From: Patescibacteria group bacterium
GTDB taxonomy: Bacteria; Patescibacteriota; Microgenomatia; UBA8517
Assembly (NCBI GenBank): GCA_026416845.1
Contig: JAOAEL010000001.1
Span: 117,940 to 181,939 of the forward strand
Length of the DNA stretch: 64,000 bases
Direction: 5' to 3'
Shown one piece after another: positions 47,385-63,221 of the stretch (positions are counted from its first letter, which is position 1; each line of letters begins with the position of its first letter). The notes under the pieces were generated by a model that did no database searches, had not been told where the DNA came from, and saw only the letters and a list, made by a program, of their open reading frames with translations. Both the position numbers and the translations under genes were made by a program.

Positions 47385-48263
47385 CTAAAGAACCAATTTA
47401 TCAACAATATCTCTTATAGATCTTTGTGGTAGATCTAAAGTTTTGCAAGATTCTTCACACAAAAGACCTCCATATTGAGGGTACCTTCTTTTGTCTTCAT
47501 CTGACATTTTTATTCCTCTTAAGTCAATAGATTTCTTGAAAACCTTGGACAAGTAATAAGACGCTATATCATAAGGGGAACTTACATCCGAAGAACTAAC
47601 ATGAAATGTGCCGGGGGAAATATCCTTTTGAATAATTTTGGTTAAAGCCACAGCCACATCATCGATAAATGTCAATCCAATTTTTTGATCAGTAAACAAA
47701 GGATACAAATTCCCACTTTCATAAAGATTTAATATTTTGTGAAGATAATCTAATTTTGCTTCAAAATTAACACGCACTGGGTTGTTTATCCTTACGATAT
47801 AAGCACTACTTGGGAGATTTTCTCTAACATAACTTTCGGCCAACGCTTTTGTATAACCATACCAATTAAGAATTTCAGAATCTAAAACTGGCATACTGCT
47901 TTCAGGATATGGACCCTTATTATCAGGTCTTCCTGAAAAAACCATATCAGTAGATATATATATAAACTTTATTCCTTTGCCTTTAGCAGCATCAACCAAA
48001 TTTTTTGTACCCTCAAAATTTACAACATAACACTCTCCTTTTTTATCATTCCGTTGTTTCTCAGCTTCGGAGACATTGGTAAAAGCGGCAAAATGCACAA
48101 CCGCGCAAAAATCAAAACTTGAAAACAAAGCGTTTATCGAAACTGGATCGGTAATATCTAGCTCAATTTCTTTAGGATAATGCAACAAATCAGAATCTGG
48201 GTAAAGTTCTATAAATCTAGACCCTACCAGTCCTGTTGACCCTGTAACAAGTATGCGCTTCAT
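47385..48263 (-). CDS. rmlD: dTDP-4-dehydrorhamnose reductase-like NAD-dependent reductase
   Basis: MKRILVTGSTGLVGSRF Rossmann N-terminus. ~290 aa. It is the last gene of the rmlA-B-C-D run. Confidence 0.65.
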   Translation of the reverse strand: MKRILVTGSTGLVGSRFIELYPDSDLLHYPKEIELDITDPVSINALFSSFDFCAVVHFAAFTNVSEAEKQRNDKKGECYVVNFEGTKNLVDAAKGKGIKFIYISTDMVFSGRPDNKGPYPESSMPVLDSEILNWYGYTKALAESYVRENLPSSAYIVRINNPVRVNFEAKLDYLHKILNLYESGNLYPLFTDQKIGLTFIDDVAVALTKIIQKDISPGTFHVSSSDVSSPYDIASYYLSKVFKKSIDLRGIKMSDEDKRRYPQYGGLLCEESCKTLDLPQRSIRDIVDKLVL

Positions 48264-48265
48264 AT

Positions 48266-48787
48266 TTAAATTTTAGATAGCGGCAAGGAATTCTTATCAG
48301 CATTAGAAAGTTCAGGAGCCTTCGTAGGCCAAGGGGTATTTAATTCAGGGTCATTCCAAGCTATACGTCTCATTCCATCTTCAGTATAGTATTTATCCAC
48401 CAAATAAAAATAGTCGATAGGTTTGTCACCCAAAACATAATAAGCATTTGCCAACATGGGTAGCAAGAAAAAAGCGCAACAATCGTAAGATGAAACTTTG
48501 CAAGTATATACCTTCTTGTACGTTGACGAATTAGGATCAATATCTGCTATTGCTATAAAAACCTCACCAACCGGATATATCAACTTCGCCCATGGATTTG
48601 CATGAAAACCACGCAAAACATTTGGATTTGAACGGGAATGGTTCCATTGAACAGGTAGAAATTCATAATTGGTTTCAGACAACAAAGATTTTCTAAAGAC
48701 TTCACAAAAAAAACCTCTGGAATCTTTTATTAGATCAAGTTCTATCTTCCAAAGGCCGTTAATGTGAGTTTTTTGAATTTTTGCCAT
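48266..48787 (-). CDS. rmlC: dTDP-4-dehydrorhamnose 3,5-epimerase; start taken at the internal MAKIQKT...
   Basis: INGLWKIELDLIKDSRGFFCEVF...LRGFHAN is an RmlC cupin signature. The ORF-track N-terminal extension would run 77 nt into rmlB. Confidence 0.8.
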   Translation of the reverse strand: MAKIQKTHINGLWKIELDLIKDSRGFFCEVFRKSLLSETNYEFLPVQWNHSRSNPNVLRGFHANPWAKLIYPVGEVFIAIADIDPNSSTYKKVYTCKVSSYDCCAFFLLPMLANAYYVLGDKPIDYFYLVDKYYTEDGMRRIAWNDPELNTPWPTKAPELSNADKNSLPLSKI

Positions 48788-48788
48788 G

Positions 48789-49793
48789 TTAAATTTGCAT
48801 CGTCTTTTTGTACAACTTTTCAGACTTTTTCTTGATTGGCTCCCACCACCATCTATTTTTTTCATACCAGTTTATCGTTTTTGCAATATAGTCGTCAAAA
48901 CTAAAAAGCGGTTTCCAATTAAGTTGCTTTCTTATCTTTGAAGAATCAATAGCATACCTGCGATCATGACCAGGCCTATCTTTTACAAACTGTATTTTAG
49001 AATCAGGCAAATTCATTGTGCGAAGTATAATTTTTGCTACTTCCAGATTATTTATTTCGCGATCGCTCCCACCAACCAAATAAGTTTCTCCTTCTTTTCC
49101 ACTTTTGATGACAAGATCAATCGCTCTCACATGATCCTCCACATACAACCAATCACGAACATACTTGCCATCTCCATATATTTTAATATTCTCTCCTGTC
49201 AATAAATTCGTAATCATTCTTGGGATAAATTTTTCAGTATCTTGATACGGCCCATAATTATTCGAGGTATTTGTAATTGTCACCGGCAATCCATAAGTAT
49301 AAAAATATGCTCTTGCCAAATGATCTGCAGCCGCTTTGCTTGCTGCATATGGGCTTCTTGGATTATAAGAAGTCTGTTCAGTGAATTTTCCTCCATGAAA
49401 AGGCAATTCCCCAAAAACTTCGTCTGTTGAAACAAGGTGAAATCTTTTTATTTTATTTTTTAAAGCGGCATCAAGCAAATTTTGTGTGCCAAGCACATTC
49501 GTTTTAACAAAAATTAACGGATCAAGTATAGATCTGTCCACATGAGTCTCCGCCGCAAAATGAACAACAATATCAGTTTCCTTAATCAAATCATTTACCA
49601 ATTTGCGATTGCAAATATCTCCCTTGACAAATCTATAATTACTTTGGTTTGAAAAATCAAAAGTGGAAGACAGATGACCCGCATATGTTAGCTTGTCAAG
49701 GTTTACAACCTGATGATCAGGATACTTTGCCAACCAATAACGAATAAAATTGCTACCTATAAACCCACAACCACCTGTAACTAGCAATTTCAT
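48789..49793 (-). CDS. rmlB: dTDP-glucose 4,6-dehydratase
   Basis: MKLLVTGGCGFIGSNFIRYWL..., catalytic YAASKAAADHL (YxxxK), 334 aa. Confidence 0.9.
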   Translation of the reverse strand: MKLLVTGGCGFIGSNFIRYWLAKYPDHQVVNLDKLTYAGHLSSTFDFSNQSNYRFVKGDICNRKLVNDLIKETDIVVHFAAETHVDRSILDPLIFVKTNVLGTQNLLDAALKNKIKRFHLVSTDEVFGELPFHGGKFTEQTSYNPRSPYAASKAAADHLARAYFYTYGLPVTITNTSNNYGPYQDTEKFIPRMITNLLTGENIKIYGDGKYVRDWLYVEDHVRAIDLVIKSGKEGETYLVGGSDREINNLEVAKIILRTMNLPDSKIQFVKDRPGHDRRYAIDSSKIRKQLNWKPLFSFDDYIAKTINWYEKNRWWWEPIKKKSEKLYKKTMQI

Positions 49794-49796
49794 AAC

Positions 49797-50513
49797 TCAA
49801 CTGTTTTTCTTTTGAAACCAATAACTATTTACTTCAAAAAGTGAATCGAAAGTCCCCGCGTCACGCCAGTAACCCTTCAATTCTGACCAAGAAAGTTTAT
49901 TTTCTTTTAAATACAACCTGTTCACATCTGTGATCTCTAATTCTCCTCTTTTTGATGGTTTGATGTTTTTGATTTTATCAAAAACAGTATTATCGTATAT
50001 ATAAAGTCCAGTTACAGCGTATGAAGATTTAGGGTTTTTAGGTTTTTCTGTTATTTCTATTATCTTTCCGTCCGAATCAAAGGTGGTCACTCCAAAGCGA
50101 TGGGGATCAATCACTTTCTTTAGAAAAATTTTGGCGCCATCTGAAAATTCTTTTACATCATCAGAGATATCAGCGTCTGTGCAATTATCACCTAGAATTA
50201 CAACTACATTTTCATTATCCGCATAATCCTCAGCTAAAGACAACGCATCGGCAATGCCACCTTCTCTCTCCTGGTACGCAAATGATAAATTTTTTATCCC
50301 TAAATGTTTACCGTTTCTTAAAACTCTCAAAAAGTGTCCCGCATGAGGTCCCCCTACAACAATCATAATATCTGTTATTCCAGCTTTCACCAAAGTTTCT
50401 ATTGGATAAAAGATCATTGGTTTATCGTAAACAGGAAGCAAATGTTTATTTGTTGCGTGCGTAAGTGGATACAATCTAGTTCCAAGTCCGCCTGCAAGTA
50501 TTACACCTTTCAT
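49797..50513 (-). CDS. rmlA: Glucose-1-phosphate thymidylyltransferase (short form)
   Basis: MKGVILAGGLGTRLYPLTHATNKHLLPVYDKPMIFYPIETL is a sugar-nucleotidyltransferase signature. The position upstream of rmlBCD supports the RmlA call. Confidence 0.75.
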   Translation of the reverse strand: MKGVILAGGLGTRLYPLTHATNKHLLPVYDKPMIFYPIETLVKAGITDIMIVVGGPHAGHFLRVLRNGKHLGIKNLSFAYQEREGGIADALSLAEDYADNENVVVILGDNCTDADISDDVKEFSDGAKIFLKKVIDPHRFGVTTFDSDGKIIEITEKPKNPKSSYAVTGLYIYDNTVFDKIKNIKPSKRGELEITDVNRLYLKENKLSWSELKGYWRDAGTFDSLFEVNSYWFQKKNS

Positions 50514-51280: not shown

Positions 51281-52177
51281 ATGGCAAAATTTAACCCAAT
51301 TAAAAAAGCTGTGATTGCGGCGGCTGGATACGGCACAAGATTTCTTCCAGCGACTAAAAATCAACCAAAAGAAATGCTACCTATAATAGACAAGCCAATT
51401 ATTCAATATTTGGTGGAGGAAGCAATAGATAGTGGAATTGAAGACATTATTTTAGTGACAAGACATGGGCATTCAGCAATGGAAAATCATTTTGATTCCA
51501 ATTACGAATTGGAAGTAATGTTGGAAAGTCAAGGAAAAACGGAACTGTTGGAAAAAGTCAGAAGAGTTTCCCAAATGGCAAATGTGGTATATGTAAGACA
51601 AAGAAAACATTTGCCATACGGCAATGGAACCCCGCTTCTGACAGTAAAAGACTTAATAAGCCAAAACGAAAGATTTGTTTATATGTTTGGAGACGATTTG
51701 GTTTTATCTAAAATACCATGCACAAAACAAATCATTGATTATTCTGACAAAAAGGATGGAGCCGTTATCGCAGCTGTTCAAGAAGTGCCTTTGGAGGAAG
51801 TAAAAAGATACGGCATATACAAAATTGCCAAAGGATCAAATGATAAAGTCGAAAATGCCATAGAAAAGCCATCGCCAGAAGAGGCCCCATCACAACTTGC
51901 ACAATTTGGTAGGTTTGTGCTTAATTATGAAATCATAAATGTGCTTAATAAAAACTATAAAGAAGGGAAGCTTGGCAAGGATGGCGAGCTCTGGCTTACA
52001 GACGCGATAATATCTTACGCTCAAAAAAATCCTGTCTACGCGGCAAAAATAGATGGTGAATGGATGACAACTGGCGATCCTCTCAGGTACATGCAAGCAC
52101 AAGTAAAATTTGCGCTGGCAAGAGAAGATATAGGCAAAAGCTTTGCAGAATTCTTAAAAACTCTTAAACTCGATTAA
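51281..52177 (+). CDS. galU: UTP--glucose-1-phosphate uridylyltransferase
   Basis: KAVIAAAGYGTRFLPATKNQPKEMLPIIDKPIIQYLVEEA and the downstream VEKP motif region. 298 aa. Confidence 0.85.
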   Translation: MAKFNPIKKAVIAAAGYGTRFLPATKNQPKEMLPIIDKPIIQYLVEEAIDSGIEDIILVTRHGHSAMENHFDSNYELEVMLESQGKTELLEKVRRVSQMANVVYVRQRKHLPYGNGTPLLTVKDLISQNERFVYMFGDDLVLSKIPCTKQIIDYSDKKDGAVIAAVQEVPLEEVKRYGIYKIAKGSNDKVENAIEKPSPEEAPSQLAQFGRFVLNYEIINVLNKNYKEGKLGKDGELWLTDAIISYAQKNPVYAAKIDGEWMTTGDPLRYMQAQVKFALAREDIGKSFAEFLKTLKLD

Positions 52178-52496: not shown

Positions 52497-53447
52497 TTAA
52501 AGAATCTCTCCAGCCTTGGCTACAATAATAATTACTATAATCATGACCAAAAAAGCAAAATGCGCAAAATTCTTGCCCCCTATACGCGGAACTTTTCTAA
52601 CTGCAATTAAAGCGCCATCAATAACTGTAGCAATAGACAATAAACCAACTACAATCAAGGAAACATTCTTTGTAGTGTCAAAAGGAGAAATCTTCAAAGA
52701 TGAATCTTTCTCAACCAAACCCGTAGAAGATGCGACATATACTACAACAGGTTCTGTTTCGCTTGGCGTATGAGTGGGAGTTGGAATAATAGTTGGACTT
52801 TTGACAGCAGTTTCAAATTTTGATTCAGGCAGTTTTTTCGAAACGCTATTTTTTTGAGCAACCGGCAATTGGGATGAAGATGCTTGAGTCCCAAAAAGCT
52901 GGACAATTATTGTAGTGTCAACTCCATTTAAATCACCTTCAACAACAGCAACGCCAATTTCCGTGTATTTTGGAGAAAGCAAATTTTCCTTGTGCGAAGG
53001 GGAAGCCATCCAAGCATCAACAGCAGAAACTGCATTGGCAAAATCGCGTGCCAAATTCTCGCCGGCATATTTGTAATTGTATCCAACCAAATTAAAAAAA
53101 TACCAAGGCTGAGTCCCATCAGGAGCCACATGCGCCCAATAATCATTGGCTAGCATATGCTCACCTTTTTTTCTGGCGGCTTCGGCAAGCAATGGGTTAT
53201 TCTTAAGCTCGGGCAAACCATTAGCCACACGCTTTTGATTAGAAATAGAAATCACTTCAGTAACAGATATTTGAGAAGCATACCCCAAAACACGAGCTCC
53301 TGTTTGCGGCAAGAAACTAATTATGGCTTGAACCAAAAGCAAAAATGCCAAAACATAAGTAAGAAAGCTAAAATGCAAAACTCTTGCTCTTTGATTGTTG
53401 CTATGATGTGGAGTGAAATAATGCAAAAAAAGGCTAACAAGTATCAT
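52497..53447 (-). CDS. CAP/SCP-domain (YkwD-like) protein with an N-terminal TM, a Pro/Thr-rich linker and a C-terminal membrane anchor
   Basis: NDYWAHVAPDGTQPWYFFNLVGYNYKYAGENLA...WMASPSHKENLLSPKYTEIGVAV is a CAP-domain signature, followed by the PTIIPTPTHTPSETEP linker and C-terminal hydrophobic helices. Confidence 0.7.
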   Translation of the reverse strand: MILVSLFLHYFTPHHSNNQRARVLHFSFLTYVLAFLLLVQAIISFLPQTGARVLGYASQISVTEVISISNQKRVANGLPELKNNPLLAEAARKKGEHMLANDYWAHVAPDGTQPWYFFNLVGYNYKYAGENLARDFANAVSAVDAWMASPSHKENLLSPKYTEIGVAVVEGDLNGVDTTIIVQLFGTQASSSQLPVAQKNSVSKKLPESKFETAVKSPTIIPTPTHTPSETEPVVVYVASSTGLVEKDSSLKISPFDTTKNVSLIVVGLLSIATVIDGALIAVRKVPRIGGKNFAHFAFLVMIIVIIIVAKAGEIL

Positions 53448-53595
53448 ACCTAAAATTAAAAGGCAATTTATCTATTCATATTAGTTAGATAAAAGCCAAA
53501 TGGCAACCAATAATTTTTATTACGATGTTACAAATTGATATTTTTAAGTCTACAAATGACTAACTTTGCTTTTATTTGCGCATTTAAGATATGGT

Positions 53596-53630
53596 TGACA
53601 CAAAAACCGAAACAGGATTTAAATAAGTTA
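53596..53630 (+). promoter_or_regulatory. Candidate sigma70-type promoter upstream of the first TasA-like gene
   Basis: TTGACA (53596-53601), a 17-nt spacer, then TTTAAAT as a -10-like element. GGAG is 9 nt before the ATG at 53673. Confidence 0.3.
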
Positions 53631-53672
53631 GCTTTAGCTTCTTAACTGTCAACCGCTCACGGAGACATTGAG

Positions 53673-54860
53673 ATGGTTTGTACCCTTAATTTACGGTTTG
53701 TTTTTCTCATGAAGCAAATATTACTGTCCATCGCCACAATAGCCGCAATAGGAAGCATATCTTTTGGCTTGTCCTCGGCTTTTTTTTCTGACACAGAAAC
53801 TTCGCAGGCAAACTCTTTGACTGCTGGATCTTTTGACCTTTTGTTAAACGGAGGCAACAACACTTCCGCGATTGTGAACATTAATGATTTAAAACCGGGA
53901 GACAATCAAATAGTAGAAAAATCTTTGCGAATAGAAGATAACTCGGGTTATGTTTTCATGCACATAAAAGATCTGTTACCTTCTCAAGGCACGCAAACAG
54001 AACCTGAGATCTTAGAAGAAAATGGCACTCCAAAATTTGACATACAAAACTACATCAAATACGATCTTGAAGCAAACAACCAAACAATCATTTCATTAGA
54101 CAACCAAGTTTTTCTGCCGGAAGTCGTCTCTTGCTGGATACCTCTTGGAGAATTGCCAGGACAAACAAATGTTTCTGTAAAACAAAGTTTTCACTTGGAT
54201 CCGAACGTCACAAATTGGGCACAAGGAGACACGCTTAGCTTTGTTGAAGAATTTTATTCTGTTCAGAGCAGAAACAACTCCAATCCAGCTCCGCCAGTTT
54301 CTTTGACTGGAAGAATTTGGGATAAAAACATCAAAAAGTGTGTAAATTGTCCATCTGGGATTCTTTTTGCCGACGGAGTAGACAGCGCAAATACCAAACA
54401 AGGCACTTTGAAAAACGGCAATCCAATAACAGATCCAAATAGAACAAATCCTTTAAACGCAACAGGACCTAATAACTGGGTAAACGGCACAGGAACAAAC
54501 TTTTTCTCACTGGGAAAAGGAGGGTATATTACTCTGACTTTTTCATCGCCGGTGGTTAACGAACTAGGCAATGATCTTACCTTCTACGAAGCCACAAATG
54601 GCAGAGCGACATATCCTGAAGAGAAAGCGGATGTTTATGTAAGTTTTGATGGAGTCAGCTACTTTTTCATTGGCACAGTAACAAGTGAACCGGGTCCCGG
54701 TGGAGACGGCATTATGGAGTTAGATATCGCGCCTTCGGGATTGCCTTCCATAAAATATGTGCGTTTAATAGACACGACAAATTTCACTCCTCACGCAAAC
54801 AACGCTGACGGCTACGACATTGACGCGGTAAAAGCAAAAAGCGCATGTCTAAAACAATGA
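53673..54860 (+). CDS. Secreted TasA/camelysin-like protein with a SipW-cognate-class signal peptide (alternative start at 53709, MKQILLS)
   Basis: N-terminus ...LLSIATIAAIGSISFGLSSAFFSDTETSQANSLTAGSFDL carries the A-FFSDTETS hallmark of SipW-dependent signal peptides. A NINDLKPGDNQIVEKSLRIEDN core motif is shared with the two paralogs. Confidence 0.7.
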   Translation: MVCTLNLRFVFLMKQILLSIATIAAIGSISFGLSSAFFSDTETSQANSLTAGSFDLLLNGGNNTSAIVNINDLKPGDNQIVEKSLRIEDNSGYVFMHIKDLLPSQGTQTEPEILEENGTPKFDIQNYIKYDLEANNQTIISLDNQVFLPEVVSCWIPLGELPGQTNVSVKQSFHLDPNVTNWAQGDTLSFVEEFYSVQSRNNSNPAPPVSLTGRIWDKNIKKCVNCPSGILFADGVDSANTKQGTLKNGNPITDPNRTNPLNATGPNNWVNGTGTNFFSLGKGGYITLTFSSPVVNELGNDLTFYEATNGRATYPEEKADVYVSFDGVSYFFIGTVTSEPGPGGDGIMELDIAPSGLPSIKYVRLIDTTNFTPHANNADGYDIDAVKAKSACLKQ

Positions 54861-55012
54861 ACAAAAAATCAAAATGGAACAAAAAAGATTTATCAATTTT
54901 CTTAAGTTAAAAAACTTTATCATTTTTGTCACTTCCAAGTCAAAAGCTTAAAGTGGCATGATGACAAAGTTTTTGCAAATCAAAAAAAGGGGGTGAAAAA
55001 AATTAAGTTTAT

Positions 55013-55933
55013 ATGAAAAAGATTTTAATAAGTTTGTTAACAATTGGCGCGGTTGGAAGCCTTGCTTTCGGAGCAACATCGGCATTTTTCTCTGATACAG
55101 AAACGTCAACAAACAACAAAATAGTCGCTGGGAAACTAGATCTGAAAGTTGATAGCACTGCCCATTATGCTGGAATGGTATGTAAAAATAATGTCTGGAC
55201 AGATGAAGATAATGATCAAACAAACAATCCAAGACCTGAACTTCTAGGTAAAACTTGTTCGGGCACTTGGACATCAACCGATCTTGGTCCAACAAATCAG
55301 TTTTTCAATTTGTCAGATGTGAAACCGGGCGACACTGGAGAAAATACGCTCAGTCTTACGGTTTTGGACAATGATGCTTGGGCATGCATTGTAATGAAAA
55401 ATCTTAAAAATGATGAAAATCAATGTACAGAGCCTGAATCTGACCCGCAAAGCGGCAACGACACAACATGCGGAAACGATCCGGTTGGAGCAGGACTGGG
55501 CGAACTTGCTCAAAATCTGTACTTTACAGCATGGTTGGACCAGGGGAATCAAGCAGGTTGGCAAAATTCAGATAATGACAATACAAATGACGATCCGGGT
55601 GAAGGAGATAACAAGTGGCAAGGTCCAACACTTGAACCTTTGTTATTCTCAAACCAACAAGGTCCCGCGTCTGATGTCCTAAATGGAAAAGTATACGCTC
55701 TGGCTGATTCCACAAACGGGAATTATTTAGCTGGTAGCGTTACTAATTACATCGGGCTTCAGTGGTGCGCTGGACAAATGACTATATCTGGAAACACTAT
55801 CAGTTGTAACGGGGCGACAATGGGCAATAATACCCAAACCGATTCCTTGACAGCGGATGTTTCCATTTATGTGGAACAACGCAGAAACAATCCGGCATTT
55901 AAATGCGCCGGGGCGAATCTGCTTCCTAATTAA
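55013..55933 (+). CDS. Secreted TasA/camelysin-like protein with a SipW-cognate-class signal peptide (paralog 2)
   Basis: MKKILISLLTIGAVGSLAFGATSAFFSDTETSTNNKIVAGKLDLKVD, followed by FNLSDVKPGDTGENTLSLTVLDN. Confidence 0.7.
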   Translation: MKKILISLLTIGAVGSLAFGATSAFFSDTETSTNNKIVAGKLDLKVDSTAHYAGMVCKNNVWTDEDNDQTNNPRPELLGKTCSGTWTSTDLGPTNQFFNLSDVKPGDTGENTLSLTVLDNDAWACIVMKNLKNDENQCTEPESDPQSGNDTTCGNDPVGAGLGELAQNLYFTAWLDQGNQAGWQNSDNDNTNDDPGEGDNKWQGPTLEPLLFSNQQGPASDVLNGKVYALADSTNGNYLAGSVTNYIGLQWCAGQMTISGNTISCNGATMGNNTQTDSLTADVSIYVEQRRNNPAFKCAGANLLPN

Positions 55934-55952
55934 TGATTGTTTTTCCAAAAAC

Positions 55953-55982
55953 CCCTCGGGCGAAATTTGTTTCGCCCGAGGG
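55953..55982. terminator. 13-bp perfect GC-rich hairpin (CCCTCGGGCGAAA / TTTG / TTTCGCCCGAGGG) between TasA-like gene 2 and sipW; candidate attenuator or partial terminator
   Basis: Seen directly. The stem is exceptionally GC-rich for this genome. The + strand has no U-tract after it (AAAGGGAG...), but the minus-strand reading is followed by GUUUUUGG. Confidence 0.45.
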
Positions 55983-56062
55983 AAAGGGAGAATAGTAAAA
56001 CAAAAAAAATTGCAATATATCAAATTTAAAAAATTAGGCACAAAAGTTTATGAGATCAGAAT

Positions 56063-57292
56063 ATGAAATACTTTAGGAACTTTTTTTATGTTTTCAAAAA
56101 CGCAAGTTTAATTTTGCTCTTCACAGCGGCTTCATTAATAACTCTTTCACATTTTGGGTATTTAAAAACAATTAAACCATACATTGTTCAATCAGGCTCT
56201 ATGGAACCGTCAATACCAACAGGAAGCGTGATCTTTTCTCTCCATTCCAAACTTTATCAGCCGGGAGACATAATCACTTTTTTTGCAAACGGTGATCCTA
56301 AAACTGTTGTTACACACAGGCTCAATTTCAAAATTTTTAAAGACAATCAAACTATATACATCACCTCTGGAGACGCAAACGAAGACTTTGACAAATGGGA
56401 AGTGAGATATGAGCATATAGTTGGCAAAGTTGTGGCAATCATACCACATCTTGGGCATGTGATCGATTTTGCCAAAACACCACAAGGATTTATAGCTCTT
56501 GTGGTTGTTCCTGCAACAATCGTAATCTATGAAGAACTAAAAAACCTCCTGCGAGAAATTGGCAAGCTCGTTTTGGCAATCAAAATTTTTTTTAAAAAGA
56601 AAAAGGAAGAAAATTCAAGTCTATTTAATTTCGCAAAAAGCGTCAATCTAAATAGAATTTTTGTTTTTGTGCCAATTTTAGGAGTGTTTGTCTTTATAAC
56701 CGCAAATTCCGGAGGATACTTTTTAGATACAGAAAAAAGCGCAGGGAACGTTATAGGAGTTGCAACATCGTATAATTCGCCAACAATAACACCTACCAAC
56801 TCAAACTCACCCTCGCCAACCATCTCTCCTACAAGCACACTACCACCCACAAACACAATAACCGCCACAGCAACGCCAACAACAACTCCCACAATTTCTC
56901 CTATGGTTAAGCTAAACGAAGCCGCGCCTGCAACTAATCCCGAATGGGTAGAAATTTACAACACATACCCTACTGCCGATTTTCTTAAAAATTACTGGCT
57001 TGACGATGACACTAGTTTTACAAGCGACTCAGGAAACTCCCCAAAAGTGCTAATGTCATCGCTTGACACATCGAACACTTTATTCCCAACCATAGACCTT
57101 ACAAATCCAATTTTTAACAATACCGGAGATTTTATAGTTATTTTTGATAACTTGGGAAATCTTGTGGACTCGGTTAATTACACCAGTAATTTTGGCACTA
57201 AATCCATCGGTCGAGAAATTGACGGAACAGGAATATGGAAATTCCCTTGCGCTAATTCAACAAAAGGAGCAAGCAACAACACAAAATGTTAA
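56063..57292 (+). CDS. sipW: SipW-type (archaeal/ER-type) signal peptidase I fused through a Pro/Thr-rich linker to a C-terminal lamin-tail domain (LTD)
   Basis: TM helix, then catalytic-Ser box QSGSMEPSIPTGSVIF, His box TVVTHRL, second TM GFIALVVVPATIVIY, linker TPTNSNSPSPTISPTSTLPPTNTITATATPTTTPTISP, then LNEAAPATNPEWVEIYN...GDFIVIFDNLGNLVDSVNY, which matches the LTD consensus. Confidence 0.8.
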   Translation: MKYFRNFFYVFKNASLILLFTAASLITLSHFGYLKTIKPYIVQSGSMEPSIPTGSVIFSLHSKLYQPGDIITFFANGDPKTVVTHRLNFKIFKDNQTIYITSGDANEDFDKWEVRYEHIVGKVVAIIPHLGHVIDFAKTPQGFIALVVVPATIVIYEELKNLLREIGKLVLAIKIFFKKKKEENSSLFNFAKSVNLNRIFVFVPILGVFVFITANSGGYFLDTEKSAGNVIGVATSYNSPTITPTNSNSPSPTISPTSTLPPTNTITATATPTTTPTISPMVKLNEAAPATNPEWVEIYNTYPTADFLKNYWLDDDTSFTSDSGNSPKVLMSSLDTSNTLFPTIDLTNPIFNNTGDFIVIFDNLGNLVDSVNYTSNFGTKSIGREIDGTGIWKFPCANSTKGASNNTKC

Positions 57293-58311
57293 AAAAGATT
57301 TTTCTATTATCAATATCGACAGCGGCAATTTTAACAGTGATCTTTTGGCACAAAAACACGACAAAAAATGTCTACGCAATAGATCCTCTGATAATAACAT
57401 ACAACAATTCGCCCACACCAAATCCAGTTTTTAATGTGGCAAATTTCTTACCCGGAGACAATAAGATCGAGAAAATTAAAGTAAAAAACAATTTGCCAAG
57501 CGGAAGCTTCGGAGTCTCGGTGGATGGGATATTGGATCAAGAACAAAAAAACTTGGCAGAAATACTACAAATTACTATCACAGAAGTTGGTTTTGGGGAT
57601 ATTTATGGAGGTTCAACTGGCAAAAAAACTCTTAAACAGTTTCTGAACTCGCCACCAATTAACTTGGGAGTATTCCCATCAGGAAGTGAGAAAGAATATG
57701 AATACAAAATATTTTTCCCACATGAATCAGGCAACGAATATAAAAACGGGCATGTTGTCTTTACGCTAATTTTCAACAATTTTATAACAATTGATCTTCC
57801 AAAAGAATGCGCTCACTTGGCAAATCAAATTGTCAACGTAATTGAAGGCACTGAAGGCAATGACAACATACATTCAACCTACCTTAGCGACCTAATACTT
57901 GCCAAAGGAGGTAACGATAAAATCAGAGCTTCAAGCGGAAGCGATTGTATTGTAGCCGGAGACGGCAATGACACAATAGACGCAGGCACAGGCAATGAAG
58001 TTATTTTAGGCGGAGGAGGAAATGACAACATAAGAGGTGGTACAGGAAACGACACTATCTATGGAGGAAGCGGAAATGACAGAATCGACGCGGGAAGCGG
58101 AGACGATGTAGTCTATGGCGATGATGGAGATGACAACATAGAAGGCGGAAGCGACAAAGATAAACTATATGGCGGCAAAGGCAAAGATGACATAAGAGGC
58201 GGAAGCAACAACGACCTTTTAGACGGAGGAGAGGATTTTGACAAATTAAATGGAAATTCCGGCCAAGACACGTGCAAATTCGGCGAAGTGCTTAGTTCTT
58301 GTGAACTGTAA
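57286..58311 (+). CDS. Secreted TasA-like core protein with C-terminal RTX (hemolysin-type) calcium-binding repeats
   Basis: Signal anchor MLKKIFLLSISTAAILTVIFW; FNVANFLPGDNKIEKIKVKNN core shared with the two TasA-like paralogs; then 12 tandem GGxGxDxxx nonapeptides (GGNDKIRAS ... SNNDLLDGG). ATGTTAA overlap with the sipW stop. Confidence 0.7.
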   Translation: MLKKIFLLSISTAAILTVIFWHKNTTKNVYAIDPLIITYNNSPTPNPVFNVANFLPGDNKIEKIKVKNNLPSGSFGVSVDGILDQEQKNLAEILQITITEVGFGDIYGGSTGKKTLKQFLNSPPINLGVFPSGSEKEYEYKIFFPHESGNEYKNGHVVFTLIFNNFITIDLPKECAHLANQIVNVIEGTEGNDNIHSTYLSDLILAKGGNDKIRASSGSDCIVAGDGNDTIDAGTGNEVILGGGGNDNIRGGTGNDTIYGGSGNDRIDAGSGDDVVYGDDGDDNIEGGSDKDKLYGGKGKDDIRGGSNNDLLDGGEDFDKLNGNSGQDTCKFGEVLSSCEL

Positions 58312-58470
58312 ATATCATGAAAAGTAAAATTTTATTGTTTGAATCATATTTTAAAAAATTTTTTATATATTTTCTCATTTTAACCTGCTTTAATTTATTT
58401 GGCGCTTATGCCGTCTAATAAATTTTGTCAGCAGGATTAAGATTAAAAAGAAAGGAGGTGAAAAGAGAAA

Positions 58471-59061
58471 ATGTTACTCAAAAAGATAACAAGCAGTTTG
58501 GCAACATCTGGCGCTTTGTTGGTGTTGGCAACTGGAGCGGTATTTGCAAGCACAGATGTTACCATCTCGGGAAACGGAGAAGATTCAGTAAACACTGTGA
58601 AAGTTAACTTAACTAACACAACATCCGTTTACCAAAGCAATGCAACAAATGTCAAAAACGATGTCTCATCAAGTGCGTCAACCGGCTCAAACACCATTTC
58701 AAAAACAACAAATGGTAATGCCAAGATAGACACTGGGGACGCGACAAGCATGGTGTCTGTTATGGTTGCCGGCGGGAATAATCACCTGTCTAGCAATCCA
58801 TGCGGATGTGTAAATGGCGAAACGACAGTGACCGTCAAAAATAACGGAGCTGACTCAACCAACAAAGTAAAAGTGAAGTCTAAAAACACTTCACAACAAG
58901 GACAGCACGGAGAAACAAATGTATCAACATCTGTTTCTTCTAAAGCCAAAACCGGTAAAAATAAGGTTAAAAAAGCCACCGGTGGCAATTCTGAAGTCAA
59001 AACAGGTGACAGCGAAAGCGCCGTGTCTGTAATAGTAACCGGAGGCCATAATTATTTGTAA
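58471..59061 (+). CDS. Secreted two-repeat protein of an unrecognised N/T/S-rich repeat family (TGDA family)
   Basis: Signal peptide MLLKKITSSLATSGALLVLATGAVFA. Two ~80-aa repeats, each ending ...TG.N.....T.GN.....TGD..S.VSV.V.GG.N.L, plus a CGC pair. Strong RBS AAAGGAGGTG before the ATG. Confidence 0.6.
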   Translation: MLLKKITSSLATSGALLVLATGAVFASTDVTISGNGEDSVNTVKVNLTNTTSVYQSNATNVKNDVSSSASTGSNTISKTTNGNAKIDTGDATSMVSVMVAGGNNHLSSNPCGCVNGETTVTVKNNGADSTNKVKVKSKNTSQQGQHGETNVSTSVSSKAKTGKNKVKKATGGNSEVKTGDSESAVSVIVTGGHNYL

Positions 59062-59082
59062 TGAAAGCCTAACGGTTTAATC

Positions 59083-59122
59083 AAAAAACCTCCTGCCTAA
59101 GCGTAGGGGGTTTTTTATTTTT
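59083..59122. terminator. Bidirectional rho-independent terminator between the convergent 58471(+) and sortase(-) genes
   Basis: AAAAAA-CCTCCTGC-CTAA-GCGTAGGGGG-TTTTTTATTTTT: an 8-bp stem (with G-U pairs) flanked by an A-run on one side and a T-run on the other. Confidence 0.55.
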
Positions 59123-59129
59123 AGATAAA

Positions 59130-59681
59130 CTAGTCGACGGACAAAACAACAACCAATCTCTTGGAATCTTTATAGCCGCTACAAGTATACAAGGTAAGCT
59201 TTTTTTCTTCGCTCGATGGCGCAATAATTTTTGTATCCGTTGGCAAAACTTCCAAAACATCATCAACTTTATATTCAAACCAAGTTTTATTAGTTAAAAC
59301 AAAAACAGAGTCTCCTTTTTTTATATACTTTAAATTGCCAAACAAATTATCTTTTGCATGCCCAAATATGACCACATTGCCAATTTCTCCTGGATATGCG
59401 GACCCTACACCCCATCCAGCTTTATCATCAAACACCTCCCAATAACCACTTTTTACAAAAGATACTTGGACATTAACATTTAGTTTAAGATCTGGAATAA
59501 GTATTTTTTGCGGGATTTTTTCAGCGTCAATTTCATTGATTAAAGCAAATTCTTCCAGTGTTGCAACTTGATTAACAGATAAAACTGAAGCGTCCGCTTT
59601 TGGTTTAAACAAAAGCAACAAAACGCCAAGGGCAAAAAGACAAATGCCTATTGTAATTTTAGAAGGGTAATTTATTCTCAT
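59130..59681 (-). CDS. Sortase (cysteine transpeptidase), with an N-terminal membrane anchor
   Basis: Catalytic His in VIFGHAKDNLFGN, TLxTC-type Cys in KLTLYTCSG, Arg in RLVVVLS. The start is taken at the second Met (MRINYPSK); 59708 is also possible. Confidence 0.8.
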   Translation of the reverse strand: MRINYPSKITIGICLFALGVLLLLFKPKADASVLSVNQVATLEEFALINEIDAEKIPQKILIPDLKLNVNVQVSFVKSGYWEVFDDKAGWGVGSAYPGEIGNVVIFGHAKDNLFGNLKYIKKGDSVFVLTNKTWFEYKVDDVLEVLPTDTKIIAPSSEEKKLTLYTCSGYKDSKRLVVVLSVD

Positions 59682-60810
59682 TTTCACTCGCTTTTCCCGC
59701 CGAATCAATTATCATACCCAAACCCAAAACCAAAAACAAAATTCCAAACAAATAATTTAGATCCAAACTTTTTTCGCTTGAAGTTTTTGAAAGGCCCAAA
59801 ATTTCTCCGCCGCCAATGGCATTTTCGCCCAAAAAACTGGTTTTGCTTAAAAAATTTGCGTTATTGTTGTTTGCAGATCCGTCGTTTGGATTTTTAATGA
59901 TTGAATCTTCAGGAACAGTCGGAGGGTCATCAGGATCATCCCCATTATCAAAAAAACAACAATTAAAACTAATAAAATTTGAATTTATATAATCATTTCT
60001 TAAAAGAATATCTAAAAAAATATCGCCTGTAATTATTGCCGAATCTCCCAAATTGCCGCCAATGAAATTTTCACCACTATTTGCGTCAACAAAAACTTCA
60101 TTTAGAATCACTGAACTATTCTCAACAAAAACATTATTTTTTAAATTTTTGAAATTGTTTGCGCTACTCCCACCGACATAAGCGTTGTCAATAAACCTGA
60201 AACTTGAAGCATCTTCTGAAAGATTGGCAGGCAAACTAGAAATAGATGAATTAATTGGACCATTTTTTACAGATGTTACAACTTTTACATCCCCTGTTGT
60301 TATTTTTGTATTGCGAGAATTATCATTTGCTTTATTGAGACCAGTGTTTGCAACCCCAACAATTTTAGTTTTAATTACAGCGCTATTTTGAGAAACAAAA
60401 TTATTTGACAAATTGCTTGAAGAACTAACTGTATTTGTTGAATTAGAACCATTGTTATTAATGTTAACCTGCTGGTTTATCTTGGCAGTTTCACAACAAT
60501 TATCTTTAAAACCATTTTGATTTGATAAATTAATCGCGGTCTGACTAATTTTCGCGTCGCCAGTTTTTACGTTAACTTCATCTCCACTTTGATCAATTAA
60601 ATTTGATCCGGTGTTTGTATTAGAAAAGACATCGTTTTGAATAGATGAGTTGTTTGTTTGCAAAACATTTACCGAATTTGACAATTGAACAATCGCCTGA
60701 CTTGAAGAATCGGAACCGTTATCAGATATCGTCAACTCATACCCAAGCGCACACTTTGGTTGACATAAAAATATGAAAAAAAAGATTAGAAAAACAAAAA
60801 ATTTAGACAT
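59659..60810 (-). CDS. Secreted repeat protein, TGDA family (paralog)
   Basis: Signal peptide MSKFFVFLIFFFIFLCQPKCALG. Repeats ISDNGSDSS...NTNTGSNLIDQSGDEVNVKTGDAKISQ and NNGSNSTNTV...ANTGLNKANDNSRNTKITTGDVKVV. Has a CC pair and a C-terminal hydrophobic segment without LPxTG. Confidence 0.6.
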   Translation of the reverse strand: MSKFFVFLIFFFIFLCQPKCALGYELTISDNGSDSSSQAIVQLSNSVNVLQTNNSSIQNDVFSNTNTGSNLIDQSGDEVNVKTGDAKISQTAINLSNQNGFKDNCCETAKINQQVNINNNGSNSTNTVSSSSNLSNNFVSQNSAVIKTKIVGVANTGLNKANDNSRNTKITTGDVKVVTSVKNGPINSSISSLPANLSEDASSFRFIDNAYVGGSSANNFKNLKNNVFVENSSVILNEVFVDANSGENFIGGNLGDSAIITGDIFLDILLRNDYINSNFISFNCCFFDNGDDPDDPPTVPEDSIIKNPNDGSANNNNANFLSKTSFLGENAIGGGEILGLSKTSSEKSLDLNYLFGILFLVLGLGMIIDSAGKASENENKLPF

Positions 60811-60872
60811 AGCAAAAATTGCGTTCTGAGGAAATCTGAGATTAATACTTTTGAGGATTTTCCTTTAAAAAA

Positions 60873-63221
60873 TCACTTTCTCGAGAACATCGCAAGTATA
60901 GCGTTTTTGTTTTTTGCAATAAATAAACCCGTGAAAATTGGGATTAATGTCAGAAGCCATGCAAGATTTATGTTGATAGTTTTTTTCTCATTTCTGATTT
61001 CAGCACTTTCAACAAAGGCGTCTACATCACCAACAATCCCAGTTTCGCTTTGATCTTTAGAACCTGAAAATGCCAAAACTGATTTGTTGGAATTACTAGC
61101 TTTTTTCGATATCGCTTTATTTGAAAAAATCTTTTTATTTGATTCTTCCTTCATATTTGTAACTTCATTATAAACCTGAAAACCGGAAGTGTTTGGGTTT
61201 GCAAGAGTGCTACTTTTGTCTTTTTCGGCTACTCCTCCGCGTCCACTATCGTTAACTGAAGATGGCTTCGAACCAACATAATCAGGAGAGACAAAATTAC
61301 CAACCCAACTGCCAAACACATTTACAACTGTCACGAATAATCTGCCGCTACCGACTATATTGTTATTTACAAAGTTAACCAAATTGGCAACAATGTTTGC
61401 GTCTCCGGTAACAATATTTGTATTGCCACCGGTATTTTTGCTTGCCTGATTTTTGCCAGTATTAGCCGAAAGATTCAAATTATTAGTGACATTTGCAGTG
61501 TTTGATTGAACAATTGTATTGTTTGCGATTGAAGAGCTAAAAGCATTGTTAAATGAATTTGCGCCATTGCCATTATTTGAAGCATAAATTTCTCCATTTT
61601 CATCAACTAAAAACTCAATCCCATTTGATCCAGCCAAATTTGCGCCTTCAGGAGACCCCAATATTCTACCAACCCAATTTCCAGCCTGATTAATAAGAAC
61701 AAGCCACCAATCCCCGCCAACTATATTTGTGTTTGCAACATTGATAACTTGCGCAGTGACATTTGCATTCCCTGAATTAACAGTGTTATTGCCATCTGTA
61801 TTTTTACTCACTTCGTTTTCACCCGTGTTGGCGTCAAAAAACAAGTTGTTGTTTATATTGGCATTATTAAACTGATACAACTGATCGTTTGAACTGACAC
61901 TTGCATCCGCAGTGTTTGTAGAGTGTGCGCCATTGCCTGTATTTTGAACATTGCCAGACAAAAGACAACAAGGCAAACCAAATCCGAAAGGAGCAATTAT
62001 GTCTCCAACCAAATTGCCAAAAATATTTACAACACCATAAATCACATTGCCAGCTATGTTATTGTTTACAAAAGTCAAAGCGTTTGCAGAAACATTCGCA
62101 TCGCCAGTGGTAATTGTCACATCTCCGCCAGTATTTTTATCCGCATAATTTTTGCCGGTATTGGAATCAAGCTTAAGTGTGTTCAAAACCACAGCATCGT
62201 TAGTCTGAAATTTATTTGTGTTTAGCGCATAATCAAGCAAAGCGTTATTCGAAGAATTCGCGCCATTTTGATGGTTGGCAACATTACCTCCACCCAAAGT
62301 TGAACAGTTAACTATGCACGCATTGCCAAAATCCAAAACAATATCCCCAATGTGATCATCTTCAACATTAAACTCTGCAATAACCACCCCATCAACATTT
62401 GTGTTGACAGAAGTAATAATAGTGCCAGTTGTATTTGCGTTGCCTGTTTTAATGTTTACATTGCCAACATTTTTGGAAGCGGAATTTCCGCCAGTGTTAG
62501 TATCTTGAGAAACTGAATTTATAACAACAGCTTTATTGTCTTGAATTGTGTTTGAATTATTTTCAGAAACAAAAGCTCCATTGTTTGCAGAACCAGATCC
62601 ATTGCCTTCATTAACAACAGCAGAAGCACCACCTGCCAAGCCGGTAGGCACTGCCGATAAATTGCTGTTTGCAACCACAGCTCCGGTGACAGAATTTGTC
62701 GCATTGCCAGTTCTTAGATCAGTTTTACCCGAATTTCCATCTGAGTTTTGTCCCCCTGTAGAATTATCAACAGCCAAACTTTTAGGAGAAACTGAAGAAG
62801 ACTGCTGGTTCTCAGCAGGTGAACTTGAATTATCTGAAGCGGCAAAATCAGAGTTAATTGATCTATCTCTTTTTGTTTTTTCATTTGAACTTTCTGAATT
62901 TTTTGGTTTGGAATTATTACCAGATTGATCACCTTGAGAAGAACCAGAATTTTGGCTATCTGGCAAATTATTTAGACTGCCAGAGGGAATGGTAGGAGCA
63001 GTCGGGGCAACAGGAGGAATTGGAGCCGCAGGTGGAGTTGGAGACAAAGGCGGAGATGGCGCGTTGGGAGCCATAGGCGCCGACGGAGCAACCGGAGCGC
63101 TTGGCACTGATGGAATTTCAGAAGCCAAAACCCCTGCCACTTGCACAAATAAAATTACAAATATAGTAAAAAGGGCAATTATTCTTTTAGTTATACTTTT
63201 TATAAATTTTATAAATTGCAT
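60873..63221 (-). CDS. Large (782 aa) secreted surface protein: Pro-rich N-terminal tract, four or five ~110-aa TGDA-family repeats, and a C-terminal hydrophobic anchor
   Basis: Signal peptide, then PSVPSAPVAPSAPMAPNAPSPPLSPTPPAAPIPPVAPTAPTIPSG. Repeats such as LDSNTGKNYADKNTGGDVTITTGDANVSANALTFVNNNIAGNV and LSANTGKNQASKNTGGNTNIVTGDANIVANLVNFVNNNIVG. C-terminal LAWLLTLIPIFTGLFIAKNKN. Confidence 0.65.
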   Translation of the reverse strand: MQFIKFIKSITKRIIALFTIFVILFVQVAGVLASEIPSVPSAPVAPSAPMAPNAPSPPLSPTPPAAPIPPVAPTAPTIPSGSLNNLPDSQNSGSSQGDQSGNNSKPKNSESSNEKTKRDRSINSDFAASDNSSSPAENQQSSSVSPKSLAVDNSTGGQNSDGNSGKTDLRTGNATNSVTGAVVANSNLSAVPTGLAGGASAVVNEGNGSGSANNGAFVSENNSNTIQDNKAVVINSVSQDTNTGGNSASKNVGNVNIKTGNANTTGTIITSVNTNVDGVVIAEFNVEDDHIGDIVLDFGNACIVNCSTLGGGNVANHQNGANSSNNALLDYALNTNKFQTNDAVVLNTLKLDSNTGKNYADKNTGGDVTITTGDANVSANALTFVNNNIAGNVIYGVVNIFGNLVGDIIAPFGFGLPCCLLSGNVQNTGNGAHSTNTADASVSSNDQLYQFNNANINNNLFFDANTGENEVSKNTDGNNTVNSGNANVTAQVINVANTNIVGGDWWLVLINQAGNWVGRILGSPEGANLAGSNGIEFLVDENGEIYASNNGNGANSFNNAFSSSIANNTIVQSNTANVTNNLNLSANTGKNQASKNTGGNTNIVTGDANIVANLVNFVNNNIVGSGRLFVTVVNVFGSWVGNFVSPDYVGSKPSSVNDSGRGGVAEKDKSSTLANPNTSGFQVYNEVTNMKEESNKKIFSNKAISKKASNSNKSVLAFSGSKDQSETGIVGDVDAFVESAEIRNEKKTININLAWLLTLIPIFTGLFIAKNKNAILAMFSRK

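Follow-up and report, generated by a model that had tools for sequence, protein, structure and literature searches.

Pro/Thr-rich tracts of surface proteins and an expanded GT-C glycosyltransferase array in one Patescibacteria locus: probably two independent modules

Introduction

Two bacterial systems of protein O-glycosylation come closest to the locus described here. In the actinobacterial Ppm1/Pmt system (family GT39; Rv1002c in Mycobacterium tuberculosis, Pmt in Streptomyces coelicolor), a DPMS-type GT2 donor synthase is combined with a polytopic GT-C glycosyltransferase bearing a DE motif; the PMT architecture consists of the PMT domain, the loop EL4 and a C-terminal PMT_4TMC module, Pmt is known to target Pro-rich P-[S/T] segments in exported proteins, and the mycobacterial MtPMT prefers P-[S/T] sites (PMC12331936). 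In streptococci, the GtrB/PgtC2 and Pgf (PgfS/PgfM1) systems combine a GtrB-like GT2 with a YfhO-family GT-C: PgtC2 and GtrB glucosylate Ser/Thr-rich disordered regions, and the acceptors in these monoderm bacteria are extracytoplasmic, low-complexity Ser/Thr-rich regions of membrane-associated proteins (PMC12041528). Here, we analyse a 64-kb stretch of DNA, called the window, from a Microgenomates/Woesebacteria-like Patescibacterium (contig JAOAEL010000001.1, positions 117,940 to 181,939), for which a preliminary description had noted Pro/Thr-rich (PT) linkers in three secreted proteins as well as about nine PMT/ArnT-like genes, and had proposed that the enzymes O-glycosylate the linkers.

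GT-C enzymes also build or decorate envelope glycans, as do the mycobacterial Emb, Aft and PimE (GT87) enzymes on arabinogalactan and lipoarabinomannan, the streptococcal GT-Cs that attach rhamnopolysaccharide side chains, and the YfhO enzymes of teichoic acids; ArnC/ArnT and GtrA/B/C belong to the same class of extracytoplasmic glycan systems. The YfhO homologs of Bacillus and Listeria, in contrast with those of streptococci, glycosylate teichoic acids. On the side of the surface proteins, the closest described systems are the TasA/TapA/SipW fibres of Bacillus and the archaeal bundling pili, and donor-strand assembly of TasA-type fibres has been described (PMC9245690, PMC10151520).

We report that the tracts of the three proteins are real and non-random, and that the "PMT-like" enzymes of the window, judged by their sequences, are not GT39 protein mannosyltransferases. 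Probably, two independent modules share the window: an envelope-glycan cluster and a surface locus with Pro-rich spacers.

Results

Layout of the window

The 54 open reading frames (ORFs) of the window were scanned with Pfam and NCBIfam. GC content is low (30-41%), and the closest database matches of the encoded proteins stem from metagenome-assembled genomes (MAGs) labelled Patescibacteria group, Candidatus Woesebacteria or Microgenomates. One GT-C (17356-19068) is 98% identical to the Patescibacteria MAG protein P0001, and a signal peptidase fused to a lamin-tail domain (LTD), hereafter SipW-LTD, is 100% identical to the NCBI Patescibacteria MAG protein P0121.

The domain scans split the window in two: a glycan-type cluster at 0.2-42.6 kb and a surface-protein locus at 52.5-64 kb, the latter with the gene order CAP/YkwD-like, two TasA/camelysin-like, SipW-LTD, RTX-repeat protein, sortase and a repeat-protein family. 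Between them lie a MacAB-like ABC transporter, trmD, a polysaccharide deacetylase, rmlDCBA and a GalU-like gene. The PMT_2 gene nearest to a tract-bearing gene (40214-41374) is 11.1 kb away from it (52497-53447), and the genes of that gap (ABC transporter, trmD, rmlABCD, galU) are unrelated.

Pro-rich tracts in three exported proteins

Under a fixed rule (at least four Pro and at least ten Pro, Ser and Thr together in 15 consecutive residues), three of the 54 proteins score: SipW-LTD, the CAP protein and a 782-aa repeat protein. When the protein sequences were shuffled, an average of 0.057 proteins per window scored, one being the maximum in 300 trials, with a per-protein chance of 0.005-0.03; the tracts are thus real and non-random. 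The linkers quoted in the preliminary description were found verbatim in the genes to which it had assigned them, and its CAP, SipW and LTD domain calls are confirmed by the profile scores below.

52497-53447, minus strand: CAP/YkwD-like protein with an N-terminal transmembrane (TM) anchor, a CAP domain, a variable spacer and two C-terminal TM helices (PF00188, 57.1 bits)
52749-52796, minus strand: PT tract PTIIPTPTHTPSETEP of the CAP protein, residues 218-233 (fixed tract rule)
56063-57292, plus strand: SipW-type signal peptidase followed by a third TM segment (TM3), an FxDTExSxxN motif, a PT tract and a lamin-tail domain (TIGR02228, 82.4 bits, cut-off 51.85; PF00932, 34.8 bits, cut-off 34.3)
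56717-56749, plus strand: motif YFLDTEKSAGN directly after TM3 of SipW-LTD, a putative SipW-type cleavage or donor-strand segment (motif alignment)
56777-56902, plus strand: Pro/Thr/Ser tract of SipW-LTD, residues 239-280 (fixed tract rule)
60873-63221, minus strand: 782-aa Microgenomates surface protein with a signal peptide, a disordered N-terminal region, four to five beta-rich modules and a C-terminal TM anchor
62982-63113, minus strand: Ala/Pro-rich (PxAP)n (PSxP/APxAP) tract of the 782-aa protein, residues 37-80 (fixed tract rule)

TM prediction, hydrophobicity and positive-inside charges place all three tracts outside the cytoplasm. For SipW-LTD, the predicted order is TM1, outer catalytic domain, TM2, a Lys-rich cytoplasmic loop, TM3, and then the outer tract and LTD. 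The linker quoted earlier, PTNSNSPSPTISPTSTLPPTNTITATATPTTTPTISP, corresponds to residues 244-280 (nt 56792-56902); the first 41 residues of the whole tract comprise 15 Thr, nine Pro and seven Ser, and no other stretch of the window reaches 55% Ser/Thr over 20 residues. An alignment of 25 SipW-LTD homologs shows the tract between two conserved anchors, the F-x-D-x-E-x-S-x-x-N motif upstream (D222 and N229 invariant, E224 and S226 at least 90% conserved) and the "LVINE" start of the LTD downstream; between them, tract length ranges from about three to about 45 residues, the window copy being the longest. Fifty of 93 full-length homologs have a PT tract at this position. The closest relative with a recovered locus outside this genome (L085; SipW-LTD 65% identical) has a tract of 15 residues.

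The CAP protein, with TM segments at residues 28-46, 265-283 and 298-316 and a predicted N-in signal anchor, aligns over nearly its full length in most of its best 150 library matches. Among 138 homologs that share its architecture, a strict PT tract occurs at this position in 20 and a relaxed one in 64; the closest ortholog, that of L085, has a Ser-rich, Pro-poor spacer in place of the PT tract. This tract evolves fast, as a spacer that separates the CAP domain from the C-terminal membrane anchor. The protein is apparently anchored at both ends, a topology unusual for CAP-domain proteins.

In the 782-aa protein, the tract directly follows a cleavable-looking signal peptide, at the predicted mature N-terminus. 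Its 44 residues include 18 Pro, nine Ala, six Ser and three Thr. A (P-x-A-P)n tract occupies the same place in 106 of 117 homologs, with an overall composition of 32% Pro, 16% Ala, 13% Thr, 9% Ser and 8% Glu, and conservation of the family extends across the Microgenomates (Gottesman-, Davies-, Levy- and Woesebacteria). In the AlphaFold (AF2) model, the mean pLDDT (predicted local distance difference test) is 55, and residues 29-150 score 30-54. The tract is a conserved, disordered Ala/Pro-rich N-terminal tail and not a linker between two domains. The beta-rich modules show the pattern NGNGS...TGxN...NTGG...TGDA. No Pfam family matched the protein, and its homologs are annotated as hypothetical, one of them being labelled TonB-like by one source; a Foldseek search of the model against PDB returned no significant match, the best ones (FapC and CsgA, E 0.8-3.9) being no evidence of kinship.

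In 80 SipW loci of other Patescibacteria, 94 of 1,308 ORFs encode PT tracts. Among the PT-tract proteins, 82% have an N-terminal hydrophobic segment, compared with 52% of the other proteins (odds ratio 4.25, p = 5e-9); PT tracts thus characterise the exported proteins of these related loci in general. Weak DNA tandem repeats underlie two of the window's tracts (56854-56894, period 12, 3.4 copies; 63012-63059, period 18, 2.7 copies), which fits changes in tract length by slippage.

GT-C enzymes of the glycan cluster

Of PMT_2-type genes, earlier counted as about nine, there are ten. Three of them (7956-9650, 9661-11412 and 13084-14763) remain below the PF13231 gathering score and are clear paralogs (BLAST E 1e-53 to 1e-88); the seven above it are the other two of Family A, those of Family B including its distant member, and a lone gene, all listed below. 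The Pfam PMT_2 scores of the window GT-Cs are 27-45 bits. With two GT87-like enzymes and one YfhO homolog, the window encodes at least 13 GT-Cs.

7956-9650, 9661-11412, 11378-13087, 13084-14763 and 17356-19068, minus strand: Family A, five GT-C paralogs (BLAST grouping, 29-35% mutual identity)
14771-16021 and 16130-17359, minus strand: two GT87-like genes amid Family A
20768-23119, minus strand: YfhO-family GT-C of 783 aa (PF09586, 70.9 bits, cut-off 28.5)
34231-35766, 35729-37261 and 37854-39431, minus strand: GT-C Family B (BLAST grouping)
31902-33452, minus strand: more distant member of Family B (BLAST grouping)
40214-41374, plus strand: lone PMT_2 protein of 386 aa (BLAST grouping)
33455-34213 and 39413-40132: short GtrB/ArnC-like GT2 genes interleaved with the Family B region
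41387-42583, minus strand: DPMS-like polyprenol-phosphate sugar synthase, a GT2 with a GtrA/DPMS TM domain (PF00535, 93 bits; PF04138, 46 bits)
2191-3477, minus strand, and a second copy at 28575-30065: Wzx-type flippases (PF01943 and PF13440)
47385-50513, minus strand: rmlD, rmlC, rmlB and rmlA, sugar-nucleotide supply
51281-52177, plus strand: GalU-like NTP transferase, sugar-nucleotide supply

The PMT_2-type assignment, for the genes above the gathering score, agrees with a polytopic protein and a GT-C fold. The preliminary description had called these enzymes PMT-like; a place in the PMT family proper was not upheld. The PMT domain (PF02366) reaches at best 22.2 bits against a cut-off of 22.7 (7956-9650), followed by 16.7 bits for 17356-19068, and gave no match in the remaining GT-C genes; the PMT_4TMC module gave no match at E <= 0.01 in the 16 polytopic proteins scanned. 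Because PF02366 stays below threshold everywhere and the second module was not detected, membership of GT39 is rejected on sequence grounds. The first outer loop contains a DE motif: Family A and its 26 orthologs share an invariant D34 and E35, and the Family B consensus at this place is DEGRDA, with D53 invariant. Since ArnT-type enzymes have the same motif, it does not single out PMTs.

The AlphaFold model of one representative (pLDDT 88.7) has a GT-C fold that resembles ALG12, AglB, STT3, Pmt4 and ArnT about equally, at 10-13% identity, and PMTs are not the best structural matches. As modelled, the enzymes are generic GT-Cs, of which the acceptor class (lipid, glycan or protein) is not readable from the fold. 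A profile of the five Family A paralogs found nothing among PDB sequences; a deeper one of 31 sequences gave a weak, partial match to STT3 (E 3.8e-4, TM3-4 only) and one to ArnT (E 5), and the Family B profile matched AglB weakly, in the TM region only. Such profile matches do not discriminate between acceptor types. In NCBIfam, every GT-C had sub-threshold matches only (Agl23 at 22-36 bits, cut-off 126), and the YfhO homolog matches the model of the protein-directed PgfM2 (NF047590) with 23.5 bits against a cut-off of 1500, over its C-terminal 70 residues only.

Donor synthesis is better defined. The protein encoded at 41387-42583 matches the DPMS of Pyrococcus furiosus (5MLZ) over its full length (E 5e-36), and the top PDB matches of 39413-40132 are GtrB, ArnC and DPMS (E ~1e-16); by sequence, both are well supported as polyprenol-phosphate sugar synthases. 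The GT2 at 33455-34213, similar to 39413-40132, adjoins another Family B gene.

The cluster as a whole lies nearly entirely on the minus strand and contains three GT4 genes, nine soluble GT2 genes, the two flippases, an amine-oxidase-like flavoprotein, the GT-Cs (ten PMT_2/PMT-type, two GT87-like and one YfhO), the DPMS-like GT2 and several polytopic proteins without a family. A block of the order GT2-GT2-GT4-YfhO-GT2-GT2-Family A-GT87-like-Family A-Family A (25.9 to 11.4 kb, minus strand) is collinear in two Woesebacteria loci (L001 and L003), where the orthologs are mostly 42-58% identical (YfhO ~30%, GT87-like ~35%). Each of these loci has five to seven PMT/PMT_2 genes within 21 kb; the GT-C expansion is, therefore, a property of the clade, and the cluster is conserved as a unit. 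With its GT2, GT4 and Wzx genes, its multiple GT-Cs and the dTDP-rhamnose genes nearby, it looks like an envelope-glycan assembly line.

The GT-C encoded at 17356-19068 is unusually conserved across Microgenomates (55-71% identity), whereas its paralogs in the window are only ~30% identical to it. It is the GT-C fixed at the end of the collinear series GT2-GT2-GT4-YfhO-GT2-GT2-GT-C, and has the look of an enzyme central to the envelope of this clade. An odd neighbour, an RNase T/DEDDh-type 3'-5' exonuclease (37264-37851, minus strand; PF00929, 71 bits), sits between two PMT_2 genes of the same strand. Three polytopic proteins (26870-28573, 30081-31895 and 3478-4614, all minus strand) with 9-13 predicted TM segments had no Pfam match at E = 1, and could be divergent GT-Cs, polymerases or ligases.

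Linkage between tract genes and GT-C genes

The 10-kb flanks of 80 SipW homolog loci were searched with hidden Markov models built from the window's enzymes. A GT-C gene was found within 10 kb at two of the 80 loci, the positive-control loci scoring 7-9. The L085 locus keeps the order trmD-deacetylase-rml-galU-CAP-TasA-SipW-RTX-sortase-repeat proteins; around a SipW-LTD gene of 40% identity (L086, on a 920-kb contig), the neighbours are unrelated genes. Within these 10-kb flanks, SipW/GT-C linkage is absent beyond close relatives.

The surface-protein locus

52497-57292 and 60873-63221 having been listed above, the remaining features of the locus are the following.

53673-54860 and 55013-55933, plus strand: two TasA/camelysin-like proteins with SipW-dependent-type signal peptides (PF12389, 34.8 and 23.0 bits, cut-off 22.5)
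57286-58311, plus strand: RTX (HemolysinCabind) repeat protein
59130-59708, minus strand: sortase (PF04203, 85.4 bits; TIGR01076, 59.3 bits)
58471-59061, plus strand: repeat protein of 196 aa
59659-60810, minus strand: repeat protein of 383 aa
63354-63914, minus strand: repeat protein of at least 186 aa, probably truncated by the end of the window

An archaeal-type (SipW-type) peptidase is thus encoded beside TasA/camelysin-family proteins with the cognate signal motif, the second of which scores 32.5 bits with TIGR04088 (cut-off 19). Downstream of the signal-peptide core, the two TasA-like proteins carry a segment AFFSDTETSxxN, and the motif YFLDTEKSAGN of SipW-LTD aligns with it in register, with F, D, T, E, S and N invariant. 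In Bacillus TasA, the corresponding region is the SipW cleavage point and the start of the donor strand. From this motif alignment alone, we infer that the C-terminal half of SipW-LTD would be a SipW substrate fused to its own peptidase; TIGR04088, the model of SipW-dependent signals, gives no match to this internal segment. SipW-LTD would then be a TapA-like accessory subunit, its PT tract tethering the LTD to a TasA-like fibre.

The locus shares with the TasA/TapA/SipW system and the archaeal bundling pili (PMC9245690, PMC10151520) the SipW-type peptidase, a pair of TasA/camelysin-like proteins bearing the cognate motif, and an accessory protein with a TasA-like N-terminal motif. It differs in the fusion of SipW with a putative substrate of its own (TM3, motif, PT tract and LTD), in having no TapA homolog, and in the additional sortase, RTX-repeat protein and clade-specific repeat proteins. 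Fusions of SipW to an LTD are common among Patescibacteria: of the 120 homologs listed, most have a precomputed PF00932 match. SipW homologs with 44-45% identity over the catalytic core also occur in MAGs labelled Bathyarchaeota and "uncultured archaeon" (L058 and L079), which fits the archaeal-type nature of SipW, or mis-binning. The RTX protein has an N-terminal "NFLPGDN" resembling the "DLKPGDN" and "DVKPGDT" of the two TasA-like proteins, and may represent a third TasA-related module, joined to Ca-binding repeats.

The 782-aa protein is one of four paralogous repeat proteins that flank the sortase. Their modules are ~95 aa long and beta-rich (NGNGS...Q.N.A.V.N...TGxN...NTGG...TGDA); two of the four are anchored by a C-terminal TM segment, and no LPXTG motif was recognised. 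None matched a Pfam or NCBIfam family or a PDB fold. They may be a fibre or S-layer-type surface family.

Discussion

We consider it probable that two independent modules share the window. In the glycan cluster, the DPMS-like and GtrB/ArnC-like GT2 enzymes would charge a lipid carrier with sugar in the cytoplasm, GtrA- and Wzx-type proteins would flip the charged carrier across the membrane, and the array of at least 13 GT-Cs would transfer the sugars outside; the acceptor of most of these enzymes would most likely be a growing envelope glycopolymer or lipid-linked glycan. As in the GT-C arrays that act on extracytoplasmic glycans, many GT-C paralogs, GT87-like enzymes, polyprenol-phosphate sugar synthases, flippases, GT2 and GT4 enzymes and dTDP-rhamnose genes occur together in a conserved cluster. 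Unlike them, the window enzymes are orthologous to no characterised member, and the organism is an uncultured Patescibacterium. In the surface locus, which would comprise TasA-like fibre subunits, SipW, sortase, CAP and clade-specific repeat proteins, the three tracts would be disordered, extended spacers outside the membrane. They evolve like spacers, as seen from the length range of the SipW-LTD tract between invariant flanks, the loss of the CAP tract in L085 and the modelled disorder of the 782-aa tract. It is the function as spacers and the glycan nature of the acceptor that we infer; tracts, their topology and conservation, the GT-C fold, the donor synthases and the synteny are the observations behind them.

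Several points weigh against the independence of the two modules. The 10-kb flanks of the neighbourhood test are blind to a spacing of 11-15 kb, such as is present in this window, and the test therefore rules out operon-level linkage only; the rml-CAP-TasA-SipW neighbourhood is, moreover, retained in the close relative L085. Tracts at the related loci consist mostly of Pro, Thr and Ser (32, 23 and 11%), not of arbitrary small or charged residues, and such a composition is what an O-glycosylation target would look like. The modelled similarities of the GT-C fold include the protein-directed enzymes AglB, STT3 and Pmt4, and Family A retains the DE motif typical of the PMT/ArnT type. In monoderm bacteria, GT-C enzymes do glycosylate P-[S/T] sites and disordered regions rich in Ser/Thr (PMC12331936, PMC12041528).

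Among the more specific explanations for the tracts, a credible one, though we would put it at less than an even chance, is that they are purely structural or binding elements that are never glycosylated. They could form polyproline-II-like rods across the wall or S-layer, by analogy with the Pro-rich region of TonB or with PT linkers that function when expressed without glycosylation, and a partner protein or a host surface could bind the (PxAP)n tail. Variation in length and sequence between invariant flanks speaks for this, as do the close ortholog that lost the CAP tract and kept the protein, the Ala/Pro/Glu-rich nature of the 782-aa tract with its modest Ser/Thr content, and the TonB-like label of one homolog. 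A rigid spacer, however, does not need the strong Thr/Ser bias of the SipW-LTD-type tracts, and comparable tracts of Actinobacteria and Firmicutes are glycosylated wherever tested (PMC12331936, PMC12041528).

O-Glycosylation of the tracts on Ser/Thr by one or more GT-Cs of the window, PMT_2-type or YfhO, using polyprenol-phosphate sugars made by the DPMS- or GtrB-like synthases, would be analogous to Ppm1/Pmt of Actinobacteria or GtrB/PgtC2 of streptococci. That at least one tract is so modified by a window-encoded GT-C seems to us possible but doubtful. The prerequisites stand: tracts predicted to be extracytoplasmic, donor synthases with a GtrA-type domain, a GT-C fold with a DE motif, a YfhO member like the PgtC2 that glucosylates Ser/Thr-rich disordered regions (PMC12041528), the preference of MtPMT for P-[S/T] (PMC12331936), and the enrichment of Pro- and Thr-dominated tracts in exported proteins of related loci. 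They are non-specific, and the part of the proposal that ties the window's PMT-like genes to these tracts found no support: no enzyme qualifies for GT39, and the fold is equidistant among lipid-, glycan- and protein-directed GT-Cs. The tie is further weakened by the membership of the GT-Cs in a conserved glycan-assembly-type cluster, by the lack of operon or neighbourhood linkage of GT-C genes to tract genes within 10-kb flanks at SipW/TasA loci elsewhere, by the loss of the CAP tract in the closest relative, and by the few Ser/Thr residues (nine of 44) in the 782-aa tract. Literature searches on Patescibacteria, the candidate phyla radiation and Microgenomates returned nothing relevant on protein glycosylation or GT-C function.

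The described systems also differ from what we found. Compared with Ppm1/Pmt, the window enzymes lie below the PF02366 threshold, lack the PMT_4TMC module and share 10-13% identity with solved PMTs; there are at least ten paralogs in a glycan cluster versus a single Pmt per organism in the cited studies (PMC12331936, PMC8698208). Compared with the streptococcal systems, the YfhO homolog of the window has only a partial match to PgfM2, and the window tracts are Pro-rich PT/AP sequences, not poly-Ser/Thr. Even so, the YfhO homolog (20768-23119) would rank at least level with the PMT_2 genes as a candidate, because of its homology to PgtC2, the sole direct precedent. The best candidate substrate is the SipW-LTD tract, with 22 Ser/Thr in 41 residues; the 782-aa tract and the CAP tract, which is short and not conserved, are weaker ones. 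Tract O-glycosylation would need only one or two GT-Cs and would not explain the PMT_2 expansion; that protein glycosylation explains the GT-C expansion is very unlikely. Glycosylation of the tracts, and the enzyme behind it, are matters for biochemistry rather than for sequence analysis.

It is highly improbable that Family A consists of AglB/STT3-type oligosaccharyltransferases moving a Wzx-flipped oligosaccharide en bloc onto surface proteins, as might be suggested by the weak STT3 match of its profile, a precomputed PF02516 match in some orthologs, the two Wzx flippases and a "WWHYG" after the last TM of 17356-19068, since the latter, rejected as a WWDYG motif, lacks the Asp and has only its Gly invariant among the paralogs (SQYG, WQFG, WQYG, MLYG), the STT3 match spans TM3-4 only, ALG12, Pmt4 and ArnT score equally well, and the first loop carries the PMT/ArnT-like DE in place of the DxD of oligosaccharyltransferases.

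Conclusions

As it stands, the window shows an ordinary co-occurrence of common PT-type spacers and a conserved cluster of the glycan-assembly type. The main value of the locus lies in testable substrates, the SipW-LTD tract first, and in candidate enzymes, the YfhO homolog and the Family A protein 17356-19068. A broader proposal, on the unlikely side in our estimate, is that Microgenomates-type Patescibacteria have a general protein O-glycosylation by clade-specific GT-Cs (Family A or YfhO) on surface Pro-Ser/Thr tracts, the targets of which would be the LTD accessory protein of the TasA-like fibre and the conserved 780-aa repeat protein. If the tracts are glycosylated, this would be the first protein-glycosylation system described in Patescibacteria, though of a well-known kind; it would give a function to at least one GT-C paralog of the Woesebacteria arrays and would be relevant to the way in which these cells display fibres and adhesins to hosts. 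If the system is general, glycoproteins would make up a large share of the cell surface in these ultra-small, host-dependent bacteria.

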